From: an uncultured Faecalimonas sp. | GTDB lineage: Bacteria; Bacillota; Clostridia; Lachnospirales; Lachnospiraceae | DNA: 53,949 nucleotides | Reading direction: 5' to 3' | Assembly: GCA_964385995.1 (NCBI GenBank) | Contig: CAYLRF010000004.1 | Coordinates: 1-53,949, forward strand | Part shown: piece by piece, positions 6,060 to 53,306 of the stretch | Layout of the letters: every line of letters begins with the position of its first letter | Position numbering within the stretch: position 1 is the stretch's first letter | Notes under the pieces: model-generated | What the model was told of the DNA's origin: nothing | What the model saw: the letters and a program-made list of their open reading frames with translations, nothing else | The model's database searches: none | Program-made: the position numbers and the translations under genes

Positions 6060-8624
6060 TTATGTCTGATCCCGCGCGAGATAATTCTCGAACTGCTCCA
6101 TGTTCATCAGTATGTTGCGCGGCTTCGTGCCTTCCTCCTCTCCCACGACTCCGGCGTCGCAGAGCTGATCCATGATCCTCGCGGCTCTGTTAAATCCTAT
6201 CTTAAAGATCCTTTGCAGCATCCCTATGGAGGCTTTGTCCTTCTCTATGATAAATTTCCCCGCGTCCGCGAAATACGGATCGACGTCGTTTCTTTCGTCA
6301 TTAGTATCCGGCGTATCCGCCGCGCCGGCCGACGTGATATGCCTCTCCACTTCATCATCATAAGCTTCGCCGTCGGTATGCTCCTTTAGAAAGTCCACTA
6401 CCGACTCCACTTCCTTATCGGACACATAGGAACCCTGCACCCTGACGGGTTTCGGATAGCCGGTGGGATAAAAGAGCATGTCGCCCTTACCTAAGAGTTT
6501 CTCGGCTCCGTTCATGTCTATGATGGTTCTGGAATCGACACCGCTTACCACGGAAAACGCGATACGGGAAGGCATGTTCGCCTTAATAAGACCTGTGATG
6601 ACATTCACCGAAGGCCTCTGCGTGGCTATCACAAGATGTATGCCGGCCGCCCTCGCCAGCTGTGCGAGCCTGCAGATGACATCCTCCACATCTTTCGGCG
6701 CGACCATCATAAGATCCGCGAGCTCATCCACTATTATGACGATCTGGGGCAATTTCTTCGGTTTTTCTTCATCGTCGGCGCCGGAAAGCGACTCCACCGC
6801 CTCGTTGTATCCCTTTATGTCCCGCACATTCATCTCGGCGAATTTCTGATAACGATCCGTCATCTCTGCGACCGCCCAATTTAAGGCGCCCGTGGCCTTT
6901 TTGGGATCCGTAACCACGGGTATGAGAAGGTGCGGTATGCCGTTATAGACTTTTAATTCCACTACTTTCGGATCGATCATTATAAAGCGAACCTCATCCG
7001 GAGTCGCCTTATAAAGGATACTTACGATGATGGTGTTTATGCAGACCGATTTGCCCGAACCTGTAGCGCCCGCTATAAGTAAATGCGGCATGGTGGCGAT
7101 ATCGGCCACAACCGGCTTTCCCGTTATGTCGCGGCCCACGGCGAAGGCTATCTTTGAGGACTGTCTCGTAAATTCCGGGGACTCCAGGATGTCGCGCAGC
7201 ATGACGGCCGAATTCTCGTCGTTTGGCACCTCTATGCCCACCGCCGCTTTGCCGGGTATCGGAGCCTCTATACGGATATCGGGCACCGCGAGATTTAACT
7301 TTATGTCATTGGCAAGCGCCACTATCCGGCTGACCTTTACGCCCTGCTCCGGCAAAAGCTCGTATCTGGTCACGGCGGGGCCGCGGCTGACGTCTGTCAC
7401 AGTGACATTGACATTAAAATTCATCAAAGTCTGCTGCAGCTTCATGGCTGTCCGGCGCAAATGCTCGCTCGAGTCGCCGCCGCCTTTGCTTCCCTTTCGA
7501 AGAAGTGACATGGGAGGATAATGATATTTCGCCTCATCTTTTCCCGTCGGTCTCGCGGCGGTTATGACGAGCTGCCCTGACTCCTCCTGGCTGGTCCGCA
7601 TTTCTTTCGCGGCGCCTTCCCTGCCTTTTGTTCCCGAGGCGGAGCGTTTATCAGCCATCTTAATCCCCGGTATCTCACAGGTCCCGTACCCGGCCTTATC
7701 GGACGATTCATACAACGCGTTTTTATGAAGACCGGCGCTTACGCCTGATACGTCCGATGTCCCGGAGGCGGCCGCGTCTCGAGCGTCATCCTCATCAAAG
7801 GGAAGCGGCTCTTTCGTGTCGGAGGCGTCTTTTTCCTTTTCCTTTGTTATCTCGGTATTGCGGGAGACGCCTGTGTAAGTCTTATCTTTTCTTCGTGTCT
7901 TTATCTTTCTTTCGCCGAGGGCGGCATTTTCATCCGCGTCCGGGTCCGTTTTGCCGCGGCCCGTATCCCCCCTCGTTTTACGCGCCGCGCCGGATGCGGG
8001 TTCTCCCCCATCTTCCTCATCGTCTCCACCGCGTCTTTTGGAATTATCCCTCACGGAGTCGCGGATCTTTCTTCCGCCGTTTTTTATACCGCCTATGAGA
8101 GACTTCTCGGTAATTATCACAAAGCATATGACGCAAACGGCAAGCACCACGATCCACGTGCCTACCTTCCCCACTGAGGGGCGAAGCATATTCACGAACA
8201 TACCGCCCAAAATCCCGCCGCCGTCACGGTGAAGTTTCGACATGCGAAAATAATCGCCAAGAGAAGTCCCCTTCTCATAATCTCCCGTAACTATCTGGAA
8301 AATCGTGCAGATCATAAGGCAGAAGACAAAGCAGGCCGCCGCTTTCACGTAAGCTATGTAATTGCCCTTATTTGAAACGAAAAAGGCGACCCCGATAAAT
8401 AAAAATATCGGCACGATGTAGGCGATGAAGCCGAACATGCCGAATAAAAAGTCTGAGCAGGCGTCCCCTATAAAGCCGCAGAGACCGAAGTTCGCGAACA
8501 TAAGAAAAAGACATACCGCGAGTGAAACAAGGATCGCTATCTCTCTTCCGATACGCGGCGACTTTTTACCCGTCTTATTTCGGGCGGCGCCCGCTGAAGT
8601 CTTTTTCTTTCGTCCGGACGCCAT
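6060..8624 (-). CDS. ftsK: DNA translocase FtsK/SpoIIIE
   Basis: N-terminal TM helices, a long charged linker, a Walker A motif (GATGSGKS) and a C-terminal gamma domain. Start chosen at ATG 8624 (AAGGGAG 6 nt upstream). The track start at 8663 lies inside a tandem repeat. Confidence 0.9.
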   Translation of the reverse strand: MASGRKKKTSAGAARNKTGKKSPRIGREIAILVSLAVCLFLMFANFGLCGFIGDACSDFLFGMFGFIAYIVPIFLFIGVAFFVSNKGNYIAYVKAAACFVFCLMICTIFQIVTGDYEKGTSLGDYFRMSKLHRDGGGILGGMFVNMLRPSVGKVGTWIVVLAVCVICFVIITEKSLIGGIKNGGRKIRDSVRDNSKRRGGDDEEDGGEPASGAARKTRGDTGRGKTDPDADENAALGERKIKTRRKDKTYTGVSRNTEITKEKEKDASDTKEPLPFDEDDARDAAASGTSDVSGVSAGLHKNALYESSDKAGYGTCEIPGIKMADKRSASGTKGREGAAKEMRTSQEESGQLVITAARPTGKDEAKYHYPPMSLLRKGSKGGGDSSEHLRRTAMKLQQTLMNFNVNVTVTDVSRGPAVTRYELLPEQGVKVSRIVALANDIKLNLAVPDIRIEAPIPGKAAVGIEVPNDENSAVMLRDILESPEFTRQSSKIAFAVGRDITGKPVVADIATMPHLLIAGATGSGKSVCINTIIVSILYKATPDEVRFIMIDPKVVELKVYNGIPHLLIPVVTDPKKATGALNWAVAEMTDRYQKFAEMNVRDIKGYNEAVESLSGADDEEKPKKLPQIVIIVDELADLMMVAPKDVEDVICRLAQLARAAGIHLVIATQRPSVNVITGLIKANMPSRIAFSVVSGVDSRTIIDMNGAEKLLGKGDMLFYPTGYPKPVRVQGSYVSDKEVESVVDFLKEHTDGEAYDDEVERHITSAGAADTPDTNDERNDVDPYFADAGKFIIEKDKASIGMLQRIFKIGFNRAARIMDQLCDAGVVGEEEGTKPRNILMNMEQFENYLARDQT

Positions 8625-8660
8625 CAGCGTCTCCCTTCTTTTTATGACGGCACGCGCCTT

Positions 8661-8769
8661 CATCCTTGCCCGGCCGCGAAAAATCAGCCCACGCTTTCAT
8701 CCTGCCCGGCCGCGAAAAATCAGCCCACGCTTTCATCCTGCCCGGCCGCGAACCATCAGCACGCGCTTT
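8661..8769 (-). repeat. Tandem repeat, 3 copies of a 36-37 bp unit
   Basis: Plus strand: CATCCTTGCCCGGCCGCGAAAAATCAGCCCACGCTTT (8661-8697), a near-identical 36-mer (8698-8733), and a diverged third copy (8734-8769). Confidence 0.9.
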
Positions 8770-8903
8770 CTTTTGTGGCACTCTGACGCTGAATCGGCGC
8801 GGAGCCGTTTATCACCGTCAACCCGACCCGGTGCACCCCTAAGGAGAACGCCGCCCGGGAGGAGTACCGCAACGGCTCGCCCGACTCGCATCCCCGCCGG
8901 GGT

Positions 8904-9642: not shown

Positions 9643-9680
9643 CCTTTCCCTCTTTCCCGGCCCGCGGCTTAATTTTAAGC
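9643..9680 (-). repeat. Degenerate copy of the hairpin + GGGAAAGAGG module (family 1)
   Basis: Coding-strand read: palindrome GCTTAAAATTAAGC, then CGCGGGCCGGGAAAGAGGGAAAGG, then 7 nt to the yebC ATG. Confidence 0.4.
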
Positions 9681-9730
9681 GCCAAGGGAATTTGTATTTC
9701 CCCCGTGTTTATGAAGCCTGAACCGTCTTT

Positions 9731-18904: not shown

Positions 18905-18940
18905 ATCTTCCCTTTCCCGACGTATTTTTGCGCGTCGGAA
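18905..18940 (-). repeat. Partial family-1 module (hairpin B + purine tract)
   Basis: Coding-strand read: CCGACG-CGCAAAAATA-CGTCGG followed by GAAAGGGAAG. It lies in the spacer upstream of metH. Confidence 0.4.
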
Positions 18941-18962
18941 AGGCGGTTTATGAGTTTTCCCT

Positions 18963-19640
18963 TCAGACTTTATAAATCCCGATAAGCGCCGTCACGGATT
19001 TCGTGGGGGCCAGCATACATCCGTCCGTCACGGTAAGACCTATTTTTTTCGGCGCCTCGAGCATGTCCAGTATGTCTTTTTGGTGCGCCGCCTGAAAGTC
19101 TCCGTATCCGGGGCTGAATCTCGGCTTTAGGCAAAACCCGTCATCAAGCTCTTCTTTAATCCTCTCATTTACCTCGTCACAGTAATTTTCAAGATACGCA
19201 GCAGCGCAGGCGTTTACGCAGGCGGCGTTTGCCATATCCGTAACCGAGGCCCTCGCCATGAGGCGATCGATCGCGGCCCCGAGCGTCGCCGCGAAGATAA
19301 CGGTTTTTTCACAGCCCGAAAGATTCTTTGAAAGATCCGAGCTTTTTATATCCGCCTTTCCTATCCTCATCCCGAAAGACTCGTAACGCTCTATATCATA
19401 AACCGCGTGGAGGCTTTTCGGCTCTGCCTCCCGTACTATCGCGTAAAGCGCAGATTTAAGCAGTTCATATATCCTGGTATCCAGATTTGCGTTACCTGAG
19501 ATACCCATGTAACGCGCGGCCTCTTTTATCAGGGCGTCCTCGCGAAGCATCCCCACGGATACGCCTCCTTCTATGGTAAGTTGCCGCCGTGCCGAAACTC
19601 CTAAGGGCGCGGCAAACGGCTTTTTCTCCGGCTCTGTCAC
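18963..19640 (-). CDS. Stand-alone methionine synthase activation (AdoMet-binding) domain protein
   Basis: 225 aa. The C-terminal region (RFSPGYGDF...GLTVTDGCMLAPTKSVTALIGI) resembles the MetH reactivation domain. Located between metF and metH. Confidence 0.75.
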   Translation of the reverse strand: MTEPEKKPFAAPLGVSARRQLTIEGGVSVGMLREDALIKEAARYMGISGNANLDTRIYELLKSALYAIVREAEPKSLHAVYDIERYESFGMRIGKADIKSSDLSKNLSGCEKTVIFAATLGAAIDRLMARASVTDMANAACVNACAAAYLENYCDEVNERIKEELDDGFCLKPRFSPGYGDFQAAHQKDILDMLEAPKKIGLTVTDGCMLAPTKSVTALIGIYKV

Positions 19641-22521: not shown

Positions 22522-22586
22522 GTTTTCCTCTTTCCCGACGCGCCCCGTCGCATTGTAAAGGCTGTTTTAAAGTTTACTTTTAAGCT
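22522..22586 (-). repeat. Family-1 module, single copy, abutting the DUF4430 start
   Basis: Coding-strand read: TTAAAAG-TAAA-CTTTAAA (imperfect hairpin A), linker CAGCCTTTACAAT, CGACG-GGGCG-CGTCG (hairpin B), then GGGAAAGAGGAAAAC-ATG. Confidence 0.6.
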
Positions 22587-28071: not shown

Positions 28072-28105
28072 ACCTGCCTCTTTCCCGATGTCATGAAATG
28101 TCTCA

Positions 28106-29008
28106 TCACAGCATTTTCCCGCGCAGCGTCTCCAAAAAACCGGTGTTCTTAAGTTTTATGAGTCTCGCGGTCTCTTTCGCGCGGCGTATAAATACACGAT
28201 CGCCCGTTTTTATCCTTATCACTTCATTTCCGTCAAACACAAGCGCGGCCGTGTCACAGGCGCCGTCTCTGGCGTATCCGAGTTCCAGTTCCACCGTATC
28301 GTCGCCGGAAAGCACTATGCTTCTCGCGCTTAGGGCATGTGAGCAGATGGGAGTTATGACCGTCATCGACGCCGTAGGCTCAAGAATCGGCCCGCCCGCG
28401 GATAAATTGTAAGCCGTGGATCCCGTCGGCGTGGAAATAATGATCCCGTCCGACTGATATGAACCCGCGGGATCGCCGTTTACATAAAGATTAAACCGCA
28501 TGAGACGAAGCCCGCCCTCTCGGGTAAGGACGATGTCGTTAAGCGCCAAATACGTGAGTTTTCCCGTCGTCACATCATCGACCTTTTCGACATACGGATT
28601 TTCTTTGACCGCGTTTTCGATTCCGGCGCCGTCGCTCTTATTTTCCCCGCCCGCGCGGCCCGCGGCGCCTCCCTTAAGCATCATCCTCTCCTCTATGAGG
28701 GGATGCCCGAAGATGACTTCGTCAAGCGCTCCCTCGATATCGCTTACGTCCACCTCGGCGAGATATCCCAAAGTGCCGAGATTAACCCCCAGGATCGGGA
28801 CATCTCTTTTACGCATTCTGCCGGCGGCGCGTATAAGAGTGCCGTCGCCTCCGAGCGTCAGCAAAAGATCAGCGTCATCGGGAAGATCTCCTGCGTCGTC
28901 AAGCAGCGCGCACCGTTTACCCTTGGACCTGATGTAATTTTCTACGCGCCGGGTCACCGCCAGATCCTTATCCTTGCTTTTATTCGTGATTATATAAAAA
29001 TTATCCAT
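28106..29008 (-). CDS. nadK: NAD kinase
   Basis: 300 aa. GGDGTLIRAAG, NDIVL and DGIIISTPTGSTAYNLSAGGPI. Contains a Gly/charged insertion. Confidence 0.93.
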   Translation of the reverse strand: MDNFYIITNKSKDKDLAVTRRVENYIRSKGKRCALLDDAGDLPDDADLLLTLGGDGTLIRAAGRMRKRDVPILGVNLGTLGYLAEVDVSDIEGALDEVIFGHPLIEERMMLKGGAAGRAGGENKSDGAGIENAVKENPYVEKVDDVTTGKLTYLALNDIVLTREGGLRLMRFNLYVNGDPAGSYQSDGIIISTPTGSTAYNLSAGGPILEPTASMTVITPICSHALSARSIVLSGDDTVELELGYARDGACDTAALVFDGNEVIRIKTGDRVFIRRAKETARLIKLKNTGFLETLRGKML

Positions 29009-38492: not shown

Positions 38493-38662
38493 AGTGATAT
38501 TACGAATGGTTCCGCGCTACGCGCTCCCGCAATCCTGCCCCTGATATTCGGATTCCGTGGGACCCCTTCCTCACTTCATCCTCCTATTTGTGCGGATAGA
38601 GAACACTTTTCCCACCGGCACGCGGGAATGCCGTGGGGCAAGGTTTCTGCCTTGATATCACT
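38493..38662. repeat. Family-2 intergenic element, copy A (MITE-like, about 170 bp)
   Basis: Ends AGTGATAT (38493-38500) and ATATCACT (38655-38662) are inverse complements. Roughly 65 nt resemble 53121-53188, including the identical 14-mer GCTCCCGCAATCCT. Confidence 0.6.
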
Positions 38663-41308: not shown

Positions 41309-42592
41309 CTAACGGTTCGCAAGTTCAGCCGTGACATCATCCCACGTGACGTGGCACTCAGCCATAAGGACCATGGCGTGATACAGCAAATCCGAAAGCT
41401 CGTATCTGACTTCCTCGGGATTTTGGTTCTTCGCGGCTATCACAAGCTCCGTGGCTTCCTCTCCGACTTTCTTTAAGATCTTATCTATGCCTTTGTCGAA
41501 CAGATAATTCGTGTAAGAACCTTCCTTCGGATGCTCTTTCCTGTCAAGGATAGTCGCGTATACGCTTTCAAAGACGCGAAGCGGATTGGTCTCGTCTAAG
41601 TCATCTCCCATGACGTTATTAAAAAAACAGCTTCTGCTTCCCGTATGGCAGGCCGGCCCCACCTGATCTACTTTGGCGAGCAGAGTGTCAAGATCACAGT
41701 CGGCCGTAAGGGATCTTACATACTGAAAATGTCCCGATGTCTCACCCTTTACCCAAAGCGTGTTCCGGCTTCGGCTGAAATACGTCATCTTCCCCGTCTT
41801 TACGGTTGCGTCAAAGGCCTCTTTATTCATGTAGGCGAGCATAAGCACCTCGCCGGTTCTGAAGTGCTGGGATATAACAGGGACAAGCCCGTCCCGGTTC
41901 GCGCAAAGATCGTCAAAATCAATCGCGCATGAAAATCCGCCGACGTCAAGCCCCAGGCTTTCGCAGCGTTCTTTAAAATCAGAGAAGGAAAATCCCGGAT
42001 CTTCGATATATTTGCCCGAAAGACCGGTAATCTTTTCCTGTTTTAAGATATTCATGATTACATTTTCATCTTCGGTATCCGTGATGATAACCGTGGGCTT
42101 ATCCGTGATGTCTGTCACGGACTGAACGCGAGGCTGCCCCGTGAAAATGATCTCGCTCGCGCTTTCGTTTATGGCCGCGGCGTTTTTGTAAAGACTGTCA
42201 AAATCATCGACGGACGCGGCGATTTTTTCTTTCCCGAAGCGAAGCGCCGCCTCTGAAATGAGTTTGGCGCCCTCTTTCGACGACATATCGATAACGGCCT
42301 TACGCGCTCCCGCGTAGAGGATTTTTTTTATGTCCTCCTGCCTGCGCACATGACCCCCCGCGTAGACAGGGACATGAACCCTGCGGCATATCTTTTTCAG
42401 CATGCCCGTATTTAAATCATGCTCTCTGTCATCGTCGGAAAGATCGATGACTATGAGAGCGTCCGCGCCGTTTCTGTCGTACGACGAGGCAAGATCCGAA
42501 GCGTCTTTGGAAAGGACCGTAAAGTCGTCAAACCACGCGGCGGCCTCTCCCGTCCGCAAAAAGACGGCGGGCATCAATCTTTTGCGGCTCAT
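41309..42592 (-). CDS. hisIE: Fusion: degenerate HisA/HisF-like barrel + phosphoribosyl-AMP cyclohydrolase / phosphoribosyl-ATP diphosphatase (HisIE)
   Basis: 427 aa. The C-terminal half contains HisI ([11 protein letters not shown]...DCDLDTLL...[12 protein letters not shown]) and HisE ([23 protein letters not shown]). The N-terminal ~215 aa resemble HisA/F ([25 protein letters not shown]). ATGA overlap with the hisB stop. Confidence 0.85.
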
Positions 42593-43185
42593 AATATAAG
42601 GCTTCCTTTCGTGGACCAGACGTCGTCAATGCGGCTCTCCCGCGACGCGGCAACATCAAGCGCCCTGCCGAAGGATTTAAATAACGCCTCCGCCATATGG
42701 TGGTTATTTATGCCGTCCTCAAGCTTTAAGTGCAGACACATCAATGCGTTATGGCTCACGGCGTAAAAGAAATCGCGTACCGTCTCCGTATCCATGCCGC
42801 CGAGCCTTTCCACGGTAAAATCGGCCTTATATGAAAGAAAGGGCCTTCCCGATAAGTCGATGGCGCACAGCGCGAGCGCCTCATCCATCGGAAGCAAAAA
42901 AGAGCCGTATCGCTTTATGCCTTTCCTGTCTCCGAGCGCCTCCTCCAGCGCCTTGCCCAAGGCGATACCCACGTCCTCCACCGTATGGTGGCAGTCGACG
43001 TCAAGGTCGCCTTTCGCGGTGACCGAAAGATCGAAAAGCCCGTGCTTCGCGAAGCTTTCCAGCATGTGATCGAAATACCCTATGCCGGTCTTTATGTCCG
43101 TTTTGCCGCTGCCGTCGAGATTTAACCTCACGGCGATGTCCGTTTCCTTCGTGGTTCTTTTTACCGAAGCGATCCTGTCATCCAT
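42589..43185 (-). CDS. hisB: Imidazoleglycerol-phosphate dehydratase
   Basis: 198 aa. RTTKETDI and [14 protein letters not shown] are IGPD motifs. Confidence 0.95.
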
Positions 43186-43357
43186 CTTTACCTCTTTCCC
43201 GACGTGTCTTTCACGTCATACAGGTAGTTCGAAAGATTTCAAACTTACCTCTTTCCCGACGTGTTCCTCACGTCATAAAGATAGTTCGAAAGATTTCGAA
43301 CTTACCTCTTTCCCGTCGTGTTCCTCACGTCATAAAGGCAGCTTAAAAAGTTTACTT
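43186..43357 (-). repeat. Family-1 module, 3 tandem copies (57-bp period) filling the hisD-hisB spacer
   Basis: Plus-strand units start at about 43187, 43244 and 43301 (CTTACCTCTTTCCCGACGTG...). Each carries two hairpins and a GGGAAAGAGG tract on the coding strand. Confidence 0.9.
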
Positions 43358-44653
43358 TCCTTCCTCCTCAAATCTTACCCTTACGGAATTCGCGTGCGCC
43401 TCTAAGTGCTCCGTATTCGCGAAAAGCATGATGTCGTCCGCCATTTGCCTAAGAGCCCCTTTCGAACATGAGATGACGCTTGATTTTTTCACGAACGAGT
43501 CCACGTTAAGCGCCGAGAAGAAACGAGCGGTACCTCCCGTCGGAAGCACATGACTCGGCCCCGCCATATAATCTCCCAAAGGCTCGCTGCTGTACTCTCC
43601 GATGAAGATGGCGCCTGCGTTTCTTATCCTCGTCATCACCTCAAAAGGATTTTTCGTCATGATTTCCAGATGTTCCGGCGCTATACCGTTCGCGAGATCT
43701 ATCGCGTCGTCCATGGAATCCGTGACGAAGATGCCCCCGCATCCGTCTATGGATTTTCTTATGATATCGCGCCTGGGGAGCGTATTTATGAGCTTTTCGA
43801 CTTCGTCACTGACCTTACGCGCCAGTGACTCGCTGACCGTTATGAGAATCGCGCTTGCCATCTCGTCATGTTCCGCCTGTGAGAGAAGATCCGCCGCCGC
43901 GAAGCGCGGATTCGCCGTCTCGTCGGCCAGCACCAACACCTCGCTGGGTCCCGCCACGGAGTCAATGTCAACCGCGCCGTAGACGGCCTTTTTCGCGAGA
44001 GCGACGTATATGTTCCCCGGGCCCGCTATCTTATCAACCGCGGGTATGCTTTCGGTGCCGTAAGCCATAGCGGCTATGGCCTGCGCCCCGCCCGCTTTGT
44101 AGATGACATCGACGCCGGATTCGCGCGCGGCGATAAGAGTATGGATATTTACCGAGCCGTCCGATAAAGGCGGCGTCGTCATAATTATCTCATCCACACC
44201 CGCAACCTTAGCCGGCAGGACATTCATAAGCACCGAGGAAGGGTATGATGCCTTGCCGCCCGGCACGTAGATGCCGACTCTCTTTAACGGCGTCACCTTT
44301 TGCCCGAGAATCATCCCGTCAGGCGTTGTCGAAAACCAGCTTTGCCTCTTCTGCTTCTCGTGATAGGAGATGATGTTTTCCTTCGCCTTTCTTATCACGG
44401 ATATCACCTTCGGGTCGGCTGCCTCGTAGGCTTTATCGATCTCATCCGCGGTCACGGCGATATTCGCTTCGGATATGTCCGCTCCGTCGAATTTCTTCGT
44501 AAGCGAAAAAAGGGCCTTATCACCCCCGCGTCTTACCTCCTCTATGACGGAGCGCACCGCGGGCTCATATTTTTCATAGCTGCCCGCTCTTACTTTAAGC
44601 AACTCGCGTATCTCGCTCTTTCCCGAATCCCGATCTGATTTTGTTATCCGCAT
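43352..44653 (-). CDS. hisD: Histidinol dehydrogenase
   Basis: SQAEHDE, GPSHVLPT and similar motifs. ATG 44653 (GGGGAAG upstream) is preferred over the GTG at 44686. Confidence 0.93.
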   Translation of the reverse strand: MRITKSDRDSGKSEIRELLKVRAGSYEKYEPAVRSVIEEVRRGGDKALFSLTKKFDGADISEANIAVTADEIDKAYEAADPKVISVIRKAKENIISYHEKQKRQSWFSTTPDGMILGQKVTPLKRVGIYVPGGKASYPSSVLMNVLPAKVAGVDEIIMTTPPLSDGSVNIHTLIAARESGVDVIYKAGGAQAIAAMAYGTESIPAVDKIAGPGNIYVALAKKAVYGAVDIDSVAGPSEVLVLADETANPRFAAADLLSQAEHDEMASAILITVSESLARKVSDEVEKLINTLPRRDIIRKSIDGCGGIFVTDSMDDAIDLANGIAPEHLEIMTKNPFEVMTRIRNAGAIFIGEYSSEPLGDYMAGPSHVLPTGGTARFFSALNVDSFVKKSSVISCSKGALRQMADDIMLFANTEHLEAHANSVRVRFEEEGK

Positions 44654-44780
44654 ATTTCTTCCCCGGCCCTCAAACTTATCCGACACTTTAAAATCACGTG
44701 TGATTTCAGCTCCTTCATCCTGACATCATCATTATGATTCTTCGGCTGACGAGACTTCCCGCGCGATCGCGGCTTCTCCT

Positions 44781-44876
44781 ATGACTTTCCTCTTTCATGG
44801 CTCGCTTTAGCGCGTTATGACCCGCTTTAGCGCGGCATCCGTCATCAATGGGGTTACGAAAGTTTACTTTCAAATC
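44781..44876 (-). repeat. Degenerate family-1 module after hisG
   Basis: Coding-strand read: GAAAG-TAAA-CTTTC (hairpin A) 8 nt after the hisG stop. Then ATGAC, a duplicated CGCGCTAAAGCG hairpin motif, and GAAAGAGGAAAG. Confidence 0.45.
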
Positions 44877-44882
44877 TTTAGC

Positions 44883-49172: not shown

Positions 49173-49280
49173 AATCTCCTCTTTTCTGACGCGCTCCAGC
49201 GCGTCATCAAGGTAGTTTTGGAAGTTTACTTCCAAACTTTCCTCTTTCTTGACGCGCCCAGGCGCGTCATCAAGGTAATC
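49173..49280 (-). repeat. Family-1 module, 2 tandem copies (about 63-bp period)
   Basis: Coding-strand read: GACGCGC-CTGG-GCGCGTC and GACGCGC-TGGA-GCGCGTC, each followed by AGAAAGAGGA-type tracts. A perfect hairpin TTTGGAAG-TAAA-CTTCCAAA (49217-49236) lies between them. Confidence 0.85.
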
Positions 49281-49373
49281 TTCTTATACTCCGCGAAGAA
49301 GCGGCAAAATCACAACTTGTTCGGTAAATCGTCAGAAAGTCGGATCTTATTTTCCCCGACGTAAAGTCTGTTC

Positions 49374-52400: not shown

Positions 52401-52468
52401 TTTCTCCTCTTTTCTTTCCTGACGCGCCCTTCGCGTCATAAAAGCAGATTTGAAAGAAAACTCTCAAA
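52401..52468 (-). repeat. Family-1 module, single copy
   Basis: Coding-strand read: TTTGAGAG-TTTT-CTTTCAAA, linker TCTGCTTTTAT, GACGCG-AAGGG-CGCGTC, then AGGAAAGAAAAGAGGAGAAA-ATG. Confidence 0.8.
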
Positions 52469-52555
52469 TCCGCGCCTCCTTAATAAACTCCCCTTATTGA
52501 AATTTTAAATCTTTATTTCCCGCCGCAAATACGCCCGATACTCTCAGAACTTTAT

Positions 52556-52652
52556 CTTCACCGCGAGCTTTTCTTTAACCGACACAGGCCGCCGAGACCG
52601 CAATCGAAGCCGCCTCAGACTTTTCACTTCACCGCGAGCTTCTCTTTAACCG
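52556..52652 (-). repeat. 26-bp direct repeat: coaD 3' end duplicated 71 bp downstream
   Basis: CTTCACCGCGAGCTTTTCTTTAACCG (52556-52581) versus CTTCACCGCGAGCTTCTCTTTAACCG (52627-52652). The second is the last 8-9 codons of coaD. Confidence 0.85.
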
Positions 52653-53106
52653 CCCGCGACACGGCGTAAGGAACAAACGGAGAAATATCGCCGCCGGACT
52701 TTGCGATCTGCCTTACAAGCGACGAGCTGACATATGACATATCAGGGTCTGCCGCCAAAAAAATCGTCTCAAGACCCGGATACATCCTCCCGTTCGCGTG
52801 CGCCATCTGCGCCTCAAAATCAAAATCCGCCGCCTGACGCAACCCTCTTACGATAACCCGGCAGTTAGCAAGCCGCGCGAAATCGACCAAAAGCCCGTCA
52901 AAGGCGACGACCTTTACATTTTTAAGGCCGAAGGTTACTTTGTCTAGGATTATAACACGCTCGTCCGCCGAAAACAACGGAGTTTTATCACTGTTTTTAA
53001 GAACAGCGACGATAAGCTCATCCGCGAGAGCGGCGGCCCTCGCGATGATATCCATATGACCATTTGTCACGGGGTCAAAACTTCCGGGATAAATCAATCT
53101 CTTCAT
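52624..53106 (-). CDS. coaD: Phosphopantetheine adenylyltransferase
   Basis: 160 aa. YPGSFDPVTNGHMDII. Confidence 0.95.
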   Translation of the reverse strand: MKRLIYPGSFDPVTNGHMDIIARAAALADELIVAVLKNSDKTPLFSADERVIILDKVTFGLKNVKVVAFDGLLVDFARLANCRVIVRGLRQAADFDFEAQMAHANGRMYPGLETIFLAADPDMSYVSSSLVRQIAKSGGDISPFVPYAVSRAVKEKLAVK

Positions 53107-53121
53107 GACTTAAATCTCTTA

Positions 53122-53306
53122 CTGATATTACGGTTGTTTGGCGCAACAAGCTCCCGCAATCCTACCCTGATATCGTTTTATCCACGGACATGCGCGTATT
53201 TGCGTTGAAACTCGGAGCAATGAAGCGGCAGGCGATGCGTCTTATTCACGGACACGCGCGTATTTGCGTGCCTTCGGGGGATACAGGTTTGTCAGCGTAT
53301 TTATCA
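53122..53306. repeat. Family-2 intergenic element, copy B (about 185 bp) filling the rsmD-coaD spacer
   Basis: The left end CTGATATTACGG...GCTCCCGCAATCCTACCCTGATATCG parallels 38493-38560. Contains an internal ~30-bp direct repeat CACGGACAYGCGCGTATTTGCGT (about 53173 and 53247). The right end CGTATTTATCA overlaps the rsmD stop. Confidence 0.55.

Follow-up and report, generated by a model that had tools for sequence, protein, structure and literature searches.

A tandem array of a structured, Shine-Dalgarno-bearing repeat fills the hisD-hisB spacer of an uncultured Faecalimonas sp. and may belong to an insertion-prone Lachnospiraceae family

The spacer between hisD and hisB was analyzed in contig CAYLRF010000004.1 of an uncultured Faecalimonas sp. 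(assembly GCA_964385995.1), whose 53,949 nucleotides are here called the window. The 166-nt gap between the hisD stop codon TAA (43354-43352) and the hisB start codon ATG (43185-43183), on the minus strand, is made up entirely of three head-to-tail units of 57-58 nt each. We favour, with moderate confidence, the reading that the spacer is a tandem array of a non-autonomous, structured and insertion-prone repeat of Lachnospiraceae which carries a replacement Shine-Dalgarno (SD) sequence. The element lies between the old SD of a gene and its ATG, with the old SD stranded just upstream; the family is absent from orthologous sites in relatives; and the element brings a strong SD at a fixed spacing from the ATG. 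The units and the genes at both sides are the following.

42589-43185, minus strand: hisB, imidazoleglycerol-phosphate dehydratase (NCBIfam NF002111, E 2.6e-83), placed to be served by the SD of unit 3
43186-43243, minus strand: unit 3 (58 nt), from sequence, covariance-model match and fold
43244-43300, minus strand: unit 2 (57 nt), from sequence, tandem-repeat analyses and covariance-model match
43301-43360, minus strand: unit 1, adjoining hisD; covariance-model match at 43301-43364 with 59.7 bits; 72% identical to unit 3
43352-44653, minus strand: hisD (NCBIfam TIGR00069, E 1e-165); the open reading frame (ORF) call is 43352-44686 and the true ATG is at 44653

The segment 43357-43186 (minus strand) spans from the last codons of hisD (GAG GAG GAA GGA AAG TAA) to the base preceding the hisB ATG. 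Tandem Repeats Finder reported a repeat at 43188-43338 with a period of 57, 2.6 copies, 91% matches and a score of 253, and the repeat alignment of the spacer gave three in-register 57-nt copies with 100/89/72% identity. Furthermore, a search with the 31-nt core, allowing up to 3 mismatches, gave 2 matches against 0.00 expected from shuffles. The original prediction, which was made from the letters alone and had described three tandem units of about 57 nt filling the spacer, is confirmed by these analyses. The array is not an assembly artefact, since the full 172-nt stretch is identical in Logan contig L001, which comes from another run and is 99.96% identical to the window overall. Logan contig L002 (99.2% identical overall) carries the last 165 nt exactly, and the three-unit array is present in Logan assemblies of two other sequencing runs.

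Each unit shows, on the coding strand, a hairpin A, a pyrimidine linker, a hairpin B and a GGGAAAGAGG tract. In unit 1, hairpin A (GGAAAG-TAAA-CTTTTT, 43360-45) holds the hisD stop TAA (43354-52) in its loop, an overlap that had been foreseen, and is followed by the linker AAGCTGCCTTTAT (43344-32), by hairpin B (GACGTG-AGGAA-CACGAC, 43331-15), whose single A.A mismatch had also been read correctly, and by the orphan SD tract GGGAAAGAGGTAAG (43314-01). Unit 2 contains hairpin A TTCGAA-ATCT-TTCGAA (43300-285; 8 bp when extended over 43302-283), the linker CTATCTTTAT, hairpin B GACGTG-AGGAA-CACGTC (43274-58) and a second orphan tract, again GGGAAAGAGGTAAG (43257-44). Unit 3 contains hairpin A TTTGAA-ATCT-TTCGAA (43243-28) with one G.U pair, the linker CTACCTGTAT, hairpin B GACGTG-AAAGA-CACGTC (43217-01) and the tract GGGAAAGAGGTAAAG (43200-186), in which GAGG lies 5 nt before the ATG (43185-83); this position agrees with the earlier assignment of the last purine tract as the SD of hisB. 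The units are less uniform than had been proposed: TTCGAA-ATCT-TTCGAA, given for both downstream units, is the hairpin A of unit 2 and not of unit 3; the AGGAA loop of hairpin B does not extend to unit 3; and the linker CTAYCTTTAT, given for every unit, is replaced by CTACCTGTAT in unit 3 and by GCTGCCTTTAT in unit 1. Of the two upstream tracts, both described as having no usable start codon, tract 1 (43314-01) has none at a working distance; however, a TTG (43242-43240) stands 5 nt past the GAGG of tract 2 (43257-44), inside hairpin A, and begins an 8-codon frame ending at a TGA stop (43218-43216).

The same architecture was found outside this spacer. A covariance model built from 31 copies and run unfiltered on the 54-kb window identified about 13 copies at 9 gene junctions, all of them on the minus (coding) strand, so the recurrence at six or more other spacers expected from the letters was an understatement, and the co-orientation with the genes held throughout. 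Outside the window, an exact-pattern scan of 185,579 species genomes (GTDB), using search patterns without the ATG, gave 93 matches: about 35 show the full architecture and the remainder look like chance. Among the former, 34 are labelled Lachnospiraceae or unresolved Clostridia and one (L087) Faecalibacterium sp. CAG:74. The element is present at at least 14 loci of a Catenibacillus metagenome-assembled genome (MAG) and at 6 loci of a cultured isolate labelled Lacrimispora saccharolytica An817; further hosts are Fusicatenibacter, Blautia faecigallinarum, and MAGs from the guts of mice and chickens. Another 39 strong copies came from a scan of metagenomes. GTDB genomes and metagenomes together contain 47 locus-and-flank combinations with 30 different downstream genes and the same consensus, AGTTTGGAAGTAAACTTCCAAATCTACCTTGATGAC-(stem, loop, stem)-GTCAGGAAAGAGGAAA-NN-ATG. 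A unit measures about 57-65 nt and is built of hairpin A, the conserved pyrimidine linker CYRCCTTKAT, hairpin B, whose GAC...GTC base is conserved while its top co-varies freely, and a long purine SD tract, RRRAAAGAGGAAA.

Wherever a copy stands outside an array, a gene's start codon comes next after its purine tract, and GAGG is located exactly 5 nt from the ATG in 26 of the 30 unique loci and in 6 of the 9 terminal copies of the window. In our own alignment, 9 of the 10 positions of AGGAAAGAGG can pair with CCUCCUUUCU, the standard 16S 3' tail of Firmicutes, which we take as a stand-in for the host's own. The downstream genes share no theme: the profile-confirmed set of the window comprises hisB, hisZ, xseB, argR, metH and a yebC-like gene, and those elsewhere, judged by their N-terminal sequences, appear to encode a sugar-phosphate nucleotidyltransferase, a threonine synthase-like protein, D-serine dehydratase, Hsp33, ModB, TrkA, asparaginase, KhpB, MurC, a V-ATPase subunit and malic enzyme. 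A GGAG or GAGG is found within 20 nt to the left of the element in 21 of 30 flanks, mostly ending 4 nt before the conserved A/AGTTTGG (the slash marks the left border), and is read as the putative original SD of the gene, now stranded. Copies elsewhere are mostly single, tandem arrays being almost confined to the window organism, and some of them belong to the 5' leader of a first gene, as in L156.

These data leave almost no room for a purely local slippage that duplicated the ribosome-binding region of hisB, with no link to sequences elsewhere. Adjacent units are indeed more alike than distant ones, and the near-restriction of arrays to the window organism would also fit; however, the same 65-nt architecture and consensus appear at 8 other window junctions and in other genera, which refutes slippage as a full explanation: it accounts for the length of the array, not for the origin of the unit. 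The terms 'small mobile RBS cassette' (RBS, ribosome-binding site) and 'translation-initiation cassette' used in the original prediction fit the dispersal over unrelated genes and several genera, the abutment to the ATG and the empty orthologous sites described below. In addition, further copies and compensatory changes, the lack of which had been named there as grounds for refuting it, were both found.

Empty sites were found at the his locus of relatives. Contigs L097 and L100 show the same order recU-hisZ-hisG-hisD-hisB-hisIE (HisB 72% identical) and no copy of the element in their his loci. Their hisD-hisB gaps are 10 nt (L097) and 3 nt (L100), versus 166 nt in the window; their hisG-hisD gaps are 2 and 3 nt, versus 229 nt; and their recU-hisZ gaps are 14 and 136 nt, respectively. 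In both contigs the SD of hisB is within the last codons of hisD (...GAGGAGGAATAG-AAT-ATG), and a tract of this kind, GAGGAGGAAGGAAAGTAA, also ends hisD in the window, where 170 nt now separate it from the hisB ATG. By this sequence comparison, the last codons of the window hisD are the displaced ancestral SD of hisB. The comparison is a deep one, since the closest HisB homologue to the window organism is only 74% identical. More recent pairs come from other loci. The hslO site is filled in An817 (GAAGGAGCAGA/AGTTTGG...GAGGAAAAC/ATGTGT, with slashes at the borders of the element) and empty in Candidatus Fusicatenibacter merdavium (L156; HslO 96% identical; GAAGGAGCAAGAGC/ATGTGT) and in L166 (HslO 93% identical; AAGGAGCAGATTT/ATGTGT). 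The DUF2812 locus shows the converse, filled in the merdavium contig L156 and not in An817. For dsdA, the nearest homologue available for a filled/empty pairing is 78% identical. Furthermore, hairpin B sequences are common to the copies within one genome and different between genomes, a pattern typical of within-genome amplification.

Other features were observed at these loci. When the DUF2812 site of L095 (7368-7540) is compared with that of L156 (15120-15330), the place of the L156 element is taken in An817 by TTTTTCTGCGGGAGGTGGGTT, which is flanked by two similar SD-like tracts and may be either a footprint of loss or the ancestral state. The methyltransferase-hslO gap of L156 (9935-10000) holds a different 28-nt hairpin, GTAACCGTTCAGTTGACGGAACGGTTAC, that is missing from An817, and intercistronic hairpin insertions seem common in this group. 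Set against L042 and L095, the metagenome contig L152 (695-759) has a single copy that links hslO to an upstream flank matching that of the L042 locus with 97% identity over 400 nt; either two copies have recombined or the assembly is chimeric at the repeat.

The borders of the element were inspected in the same loci. Left flanks vary (native SD plus 1-5 nt), and the right flank is NN-ATG. The unit starts with AGTTTGGAAG and ends with GAGGAAA, and as these ends are not complementary no terminal inverted repeat is seen; nor did the flanks of 30 loci, or the hslO pair of filled and empty sites, show a matching direct repeat of the target-site type. No transposase lies between the end of hairpin A and the end of hairpin B in the loci of 8-20 kb examined. 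A twin-hairpin MITE derived from IS200/IS605 is not supported, the two hairpins being unlike each other, with no conserved tetranucleotide target at the ends and two variable bases before the ATG, though an HUH-type enzyme might act in trans. A target-site duplication of the SD itself was also discarded: the right SD is constant, the left one varies, and a loose resemblance between them is seen in L156 only. Carriage by phages or plasmids finds no support in the viral contigs, in which 4 pattern matches include none that fits the covariance model, or in blastn against phages and plasmids, which gave no matches to the element.

The RNA structure of the unit was studied by folding and by covariation. 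Both hairpins were predicted in all units tested (single-unit z of -3.6 to -7.4; whole spacer z of -5.2), and unit 3 folded into hairpin A, hairpin B and an ACCU:AGGU pairing with -19 kcal/mol (z -3.6). This pairing corresponds to a predicted 4-bp outer helix between CCUU of the linker (ACCU in unit 3) and GAGG of the SD (AGGU in unit 3), a helix that folding gives for nearly all copies; across 53 copies, GAGG is predicted to be unpaired with a median probability of 0.23. Covariation was analyzed on a 42-sequence alignment with 500 shuffles and with pairing partners slid by 1-3 columns. Changes on both sides were found in 6 of 8 pairs of hairpin A and in 5 of 8 of hairpin B; 88% of the cells were paired, versus 31-47% with the partners slid, and none of the 500 shuffles scored as high as the alignment observed. 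The stems of hairpin B are GACGTG/CACGTC, GACGCGC/GCGCGTC and GACTTG/CAAGTC in the window, and GACGCA/TGCGTC and GACATG/CATGTC elsewhere, and hairpin A is swapped for a different but pairing sequence in L087 and in the his units.

This last replacement bears on the idea that the element is a site acting at the DNA level, either a palindromic operator (TTTGGAAG-N4-CTTCCAAA) or a single-strand hairpin for a recombinase or HUH enzyme, with no RNA role. Such a site, which we regard as very unlikely, would agree with hairpin A being a sequence-conserved perfect palindrome in most genomes, with counts of G.U versus A.C pairs that do not favour the RNA strand, and with the exchange of flanks across the copy in L152. 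However, the wholesale replacement of hairpin A with its pairing kept, as well as the strict coding-strand orientation and the built-in SD at a fixed spacing, point to a role at the transcript level; moreover, a recombinase site and an RNA role can coexist.

A cis-regulatory RNA module kept by the host is an unlikely alternative of more substance, in which a translational switch ahead of many genes (a thermosensor or a site for a global RNA-binding protein) would be formed by the SD together with the anti-SD linker and the clamp of hairpin B, with the repeats as the signature of a regulon and not selfish DNA. It finds support in the near-invariance, between genera, of the linker and of the hairpin B base, in contrast to co-varying stem tops, in an SD core predicted to be mostly paired, in the fixed spacing to the ATG, and in a variant unit at 18905-18969 that lengthens the masking helix to about 12 bp. 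Nevertheless, the downstream genes have no common theme, close relatives are without the element at the same genes, and copies within a genome are more alike than copies between genomes, as is typical of amplification. Decayed copies retain the SD alone, internal units of arrays regulate nothing directly, and no Rfam family corresponds to the module. A riboswitch or ligand-binding leader was rejected, as the structure is just two simple hairpins and the genes downstream are unrelated. The UGAUGA motif was inspected as a kink-turn or box C/D-like sequence and this was rejected also: every window copy has T in place of the key G, and the GA required on the 3' strand is missing. A GGA, which would suggest a CsrA site, is present in the hairpin B loop of some copies only. 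No sigma-70-like promoter was found in any copy between 42500 and 53000 by a consensus scan, and a terminator scan flagged hairpin A with the pyrimidine linker in two copies (52473-52444 and 43302-43283), with AT-rich stems and short, interrupted U runs.

The STAB-SD of Bacillus thuringiensis cry3A is an SD-like site, complementary to 16S rRNA, located far from the start codon in an untranslated stretch; it is a single site in one 5' leader, and its stabilising effect has been shown experimentally. The orphan tracts of the his spacer (43314-43301 and 43257-43244), far from the start codon used, resemble it, and the comparison is apt as an analogy only: STAB-SD is no repeat family and has no twin hairpins, and a stabilising role of the element is suggested by analogy alone. 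An intercistronic processing or stabilising cassette, in which the hairpins would be barriers or cut sites for RNase III, Y or J, the orphan SDs would hold 30S subunits, and hisD and hisB would differ in half-life, is an alternative that we consider quite unlikely. Its hairpins are stable and conserved, its orphan tracts are long SD matches far from any start, and its location inside operons parallels the effects of REP and ERIC on mRNA segments (PMC3184786). However, copies outside the window are mostly single and so have no orphan tract of their own, some copies are in the 5' leader of a first gene (L156), and a stabiliser has no need of the strict 5-nt link to the ATG.

Under the reading of an insertion-prone repeat with its own SD, the family would spread by insertion or copying into the SD-ATG interval of translation-initiation regions, and insertion would be tolerated because the element supplies a replacement SD. 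Local duplication in the window lineage would then build arrays, and tight, probably translationally coupled hisD-hisB, hisG-hisD and recU-hisZ junctions would become gaps of roughly 110-230 nt. On the his mRNA, the last tract alone would serve hisB, and the CCUU of the linker would pair with the GAGG core, forming a weak SD-masking helix that is predicted to damp hisB initiation. Together with the two-hairpin units, this pairing would make hisB initiation independent of hisD termination and gated by that helix. Hairpin A, 4-7 nt past the stranded SD, would keep the latter silent, and the internal orphan tracts and hairpins may slow mRNA decay, like STAB-SD and REP hairpins. The older copies (the argR remnant and the hisG-hisD gap, listed below) have lost their hairpins and retain only the SD, which suggests that the host needs the SD rather than the hairpins.

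Several points weigh against this reading. The recent filled/empty comparisons number only two (hslO and DUF2812), the second of them blurred by 21 unrelated nt that An817 carries at the site. Elsewhere there is just one copy per 8-kb locus, which indicates low mobility in other genomes, and neither an enzyme, an autonomous parent, a terminal inverted repeat nor a target-site duplication was found. Selection acting on RNA function, and not on the ability to spread, could have produced the compensatory stem changes; the counts of G.U versus A.C pairs (28 versus 24 in hairpin A; 18 versus 8 in hairpin B) do not reveal which strand is functional; and the CCUU:GAGG helix, whose columns are nearly invariant, lies beyond the covariation test and is an energy prediction only. 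Finally, no copy was seen away from an ATG. This and the near-constant 5-nt spacing are hard to explain by tolerance alone: tolerance should leave neutral intergenic copies, and their absence may reflect either targeted insertion or a host function linked to the start codon. A tentative possibility, which we hold at lower confidence than the insertion-prone repeat as such, is that the family is a new mobile DNA homing to translation-initiation regions, a portable, structure-gated RBS that rewires coupling inside operons. Insertion would occur about 2 nt upstream of start codons, possibly when a circular or tandem copy recombines with the chromosome in the A-rich interval that separates SD and ATG.

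The element was compared with known repeats and structured RNAs. Rfam 15 at gathering thresholds gave a sole match over the whole window, Clostridiales-1, which lies elsewhere in it; at E<=10 the his spacer gave noise only, and at E<=1 the consensus copies in L035 and L095 gave no match on the element. In the literature on Lachnospiraceae and Clostridia we found no described SD-bearing repeat of this type. The statement in the original prediction that no described element has such a layout thus holds for Rfam 15 and not for kinds of element, as REP2, the Borrelia IR repeats and MIRUs are published analogues. Neisseria REP2 and the inverted repeat (IR) sequences of Borrelia plasmids, the closest known kinds, place two stem-loops, then an RBS and ATG, right in front of genes; they lack terminal inverted repeats and also carry a promoter (Delihas 2011, PMC3184786). 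Our element shares with them the dispersed distribution in a few dozen copies per genome, the absence of terminal inverted repeats and the two stem-loops, RBS and ATG immediately upstream of ORFs; however, the consensus scan found no promoter in it, its genes are unrelated whereas REP2 marks a co-regulated set, tandem arrays inside operons are not a feature of REP2, and the hosts belong to different phyla; the likeness drawn here is one of layout.

MIRUs are units of 40-100 bp, often tandem, intercistronic and co-oriented, which are described as inserting at start codons with little harm to expression (PMC3184786, PMC12548453; summarising Supply et al. 1997). Downstream expression is kept through a small internal ORF coupled by an ATGA overlap, and 4-nt direct repeats are present at the ends (PMC3184786, PMC12548453). 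The element likewise forms co-oriented arrays, with periods of 57, 60 and 63 nt, in the his and neighbouring gaps, and its filled and empty sites differ between species. In contrast to MIRUs, it shows no 4-nt direct repeats at its ends and brings an SD instead of a coupled ORF: as read from the letters, TGA, TAA and TGA stops cover all three frames of the his units. A MIRU-style coupled mini-ORF was rejected, the ATG of TKATGAC opening only ATG-ACG-TGA in the his units and frames of varying phase and length elsewhere, with stops in all frames; the family has no conserved reading frame, since its 64-nt and 65-nt versions differ in phase. In a separate observation, the array unit lengths of 57, 60 and 63 nt are all multiples of three, and no reading frame runs through the his units.

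REP/BIME, ERIC and MITE sequences are also short, structured, multi-copy intergenic repeats that are co-transcribed and able to alter the stability or translation of flanking mRNA. However, REPs are GC-rich palindromes of 20-40 nt that follow stop codons in both, alternating orientations and have a conserved GTAG head and RAYT transposases, none of which is seen in the element, whose hairpin A is AT-rich and without GTAG and whose copies are co-oriented and upstream of an ATG; the terminal inverted repeats and target-site duplications of MITEs are likewise missing. In fourU and ROSE thermometers the SD core is held at a hairpin's foot by a few pyrimidines, in a helix weak enough to melt, and a comparable pairing is predicted here; however, thermometers are single-copy and control heat-shock or virulence genes, while the genes of the element are housekeeping and its predicted helix has only 4 bp across a 2x5 internal loop. 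Because the defining features of REP/BIME, MITE, the MIRU ORF and the REP2 promoter are absent, no named family was assigned, and the element is filed as an SD-bearing, start-codon-associated structured repeat outside any named family, of kinds that are already known.

If the insertion-prone reading is true, a short repeat can overwrite the RBS of housekeeping genes and, in an amino-acid operon, undo the close coupling of stop and start codons with expression surviving, and about one fifth of the gene junctions in the window would be affected in one gut Lachnospiraceae lineage. How small repeats land exactly at translation starts is an old question from MIRUs and REP2; were the homing reading true, the family would stand beside MIRUs as their SD-carrying counterpart and could show by what means elements of this sort locate start codons. 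The cultured isolate An817, and the filled and empty alleles among close relatives, offer an experimental handle. The element misleads gene callers, three ORF starts of the window being inside copies, and breaks metagenome assemblies, as Logan contig L003 terminates within the array and L152 shows the flank swap across a copy. It is also predicted to be a natural, modular, hairpin-insulated RBS part for Clostridia.

The other copies in the window, all on the minus strand, are the following.

9645-9705, minus strand: possible decayed copy ahead of a yebC-like gene (ATG 9635); weak match, 16.7 bits, E 0.02
18905-18969, minus strand: variant unit upstream of metH; 33.3 bits, fold, Pfam
22523-22586, minus strand: single unit ahead of ATG 22521 (DUF4430 protein), hairpin B distorted; 55.1 bits, Pfam
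28072-28108, minus strand: remnant ahead of argR (ATG 28071), from sequence; model match of only 10 bits
33177-33254, minus strand: weak copy ahead of xseB (ATG 33175); 19.5 bits, E 0.004
44654-44882, minus strand: hisG-hisD gap, 229 nt, decayed units; model matches of 16.6 and 30 bits
46858-46981, minus strand: recU-hisZ gap, two tandem units with a 60-nt period; model matches of 50.6 and 38.9 bits
49174-49302, minus strand: two tandem units with a 63-nt period ahead of ATG 49172 (191-aa membrane protein); model matches of 82.5 and 46.7 bits
52407-52470, minus strand: single unit ahead of ATG 52400 (196-aa coiled-coil protein); 60.4 bits, fold

The downstream unit of the 49174-49302 array is the window copy closest to the family consensus. 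The hairpin B stems of the recU-hisZ units are GACTTG/CAAGTC and GACTT/AAGTC, and the 52407-52470 unit contains hairpin A TTTGAGAG-TTTT-CTTTCAAA and hairpin B GACGCG-AAGGG-CGCGTC. In the metH variant unit, according to the fold, CCTTTCCGACG...CGTCGGGAAAGG form one long helix that buries the purine tract. The hisG-hisD gap shows hairpin A at 44874-44855 and then the linker ...CCATTGATGAC, a duplicated hairpin B (CCGCGCTAAAGCGG and CGCGCTAAAGCG), GAAAGAGGAAAG at 44796-85, and more remnants, TGATGATGTCAGGATGAAGGAG and GCCGGGGAAGAAAT, ahead of the ATG. The xseB copy retains ATGAC...GTCGGAAAAGAGG and has a longer hairpin B, the argR remnant reads TTCATGAC-ATCGGGAAAGAGG-CAGGT-ATG with the SD retained and hairpin B gone, and the possible copy ahead of the yebC-like gene contains ...GCCGGGAAAGAGGGAAAGG....

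Mechanical ORF calls start inside or upstream of copies at hisZ (TTG 46945), the 191-aa gene (TTG 49235), the 196-aa gene (52439, the ATG of TTATGAC) and hisD (GTG 44686). The real starts are at about 46850, 49172, 52400 and 44653, respectively, so that the element lengthens the calls in frame; in the 63-nt array (49174-49302) an internal TTG is in frame with the downstream ATG. The SD of the metH variant unit is followed by an 8-codon ORF (18906-18880, minus strand), whose TGA overlaps the metH ATG as ATGA, and which looks, from its layout, like a leader peptide coupled to metH.

Other features were also seen in the window. A tandem repeat of 36 nt x 3.2 at 8655-8770 (minus strand) ends at the ATG of an 867-aa gene (6060-8663); each copy contains GGCAGGATGAAAGCG, the start region itself, and it is the second duplicated translation-start sequence of the window. 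The Clostridiales-1 RNA (RF01699, 63 bits) is located at 38495-38660 (minus strand), upstream of an aspartate-kinase-like gene. The spacer at 53106-53304 (minus strand) has ATCAGGG.AGGATTGCGGGAGC...GTAATATCA in common with this RNA and no Rfam match at E<=1. Finally, the leader of a 160-aa gene (52624-53106) contains two 32-nt direct repeats (53174-53205 and 53238-53269), 91% alike and 64 nt apart, which could be paired operator-like sites.

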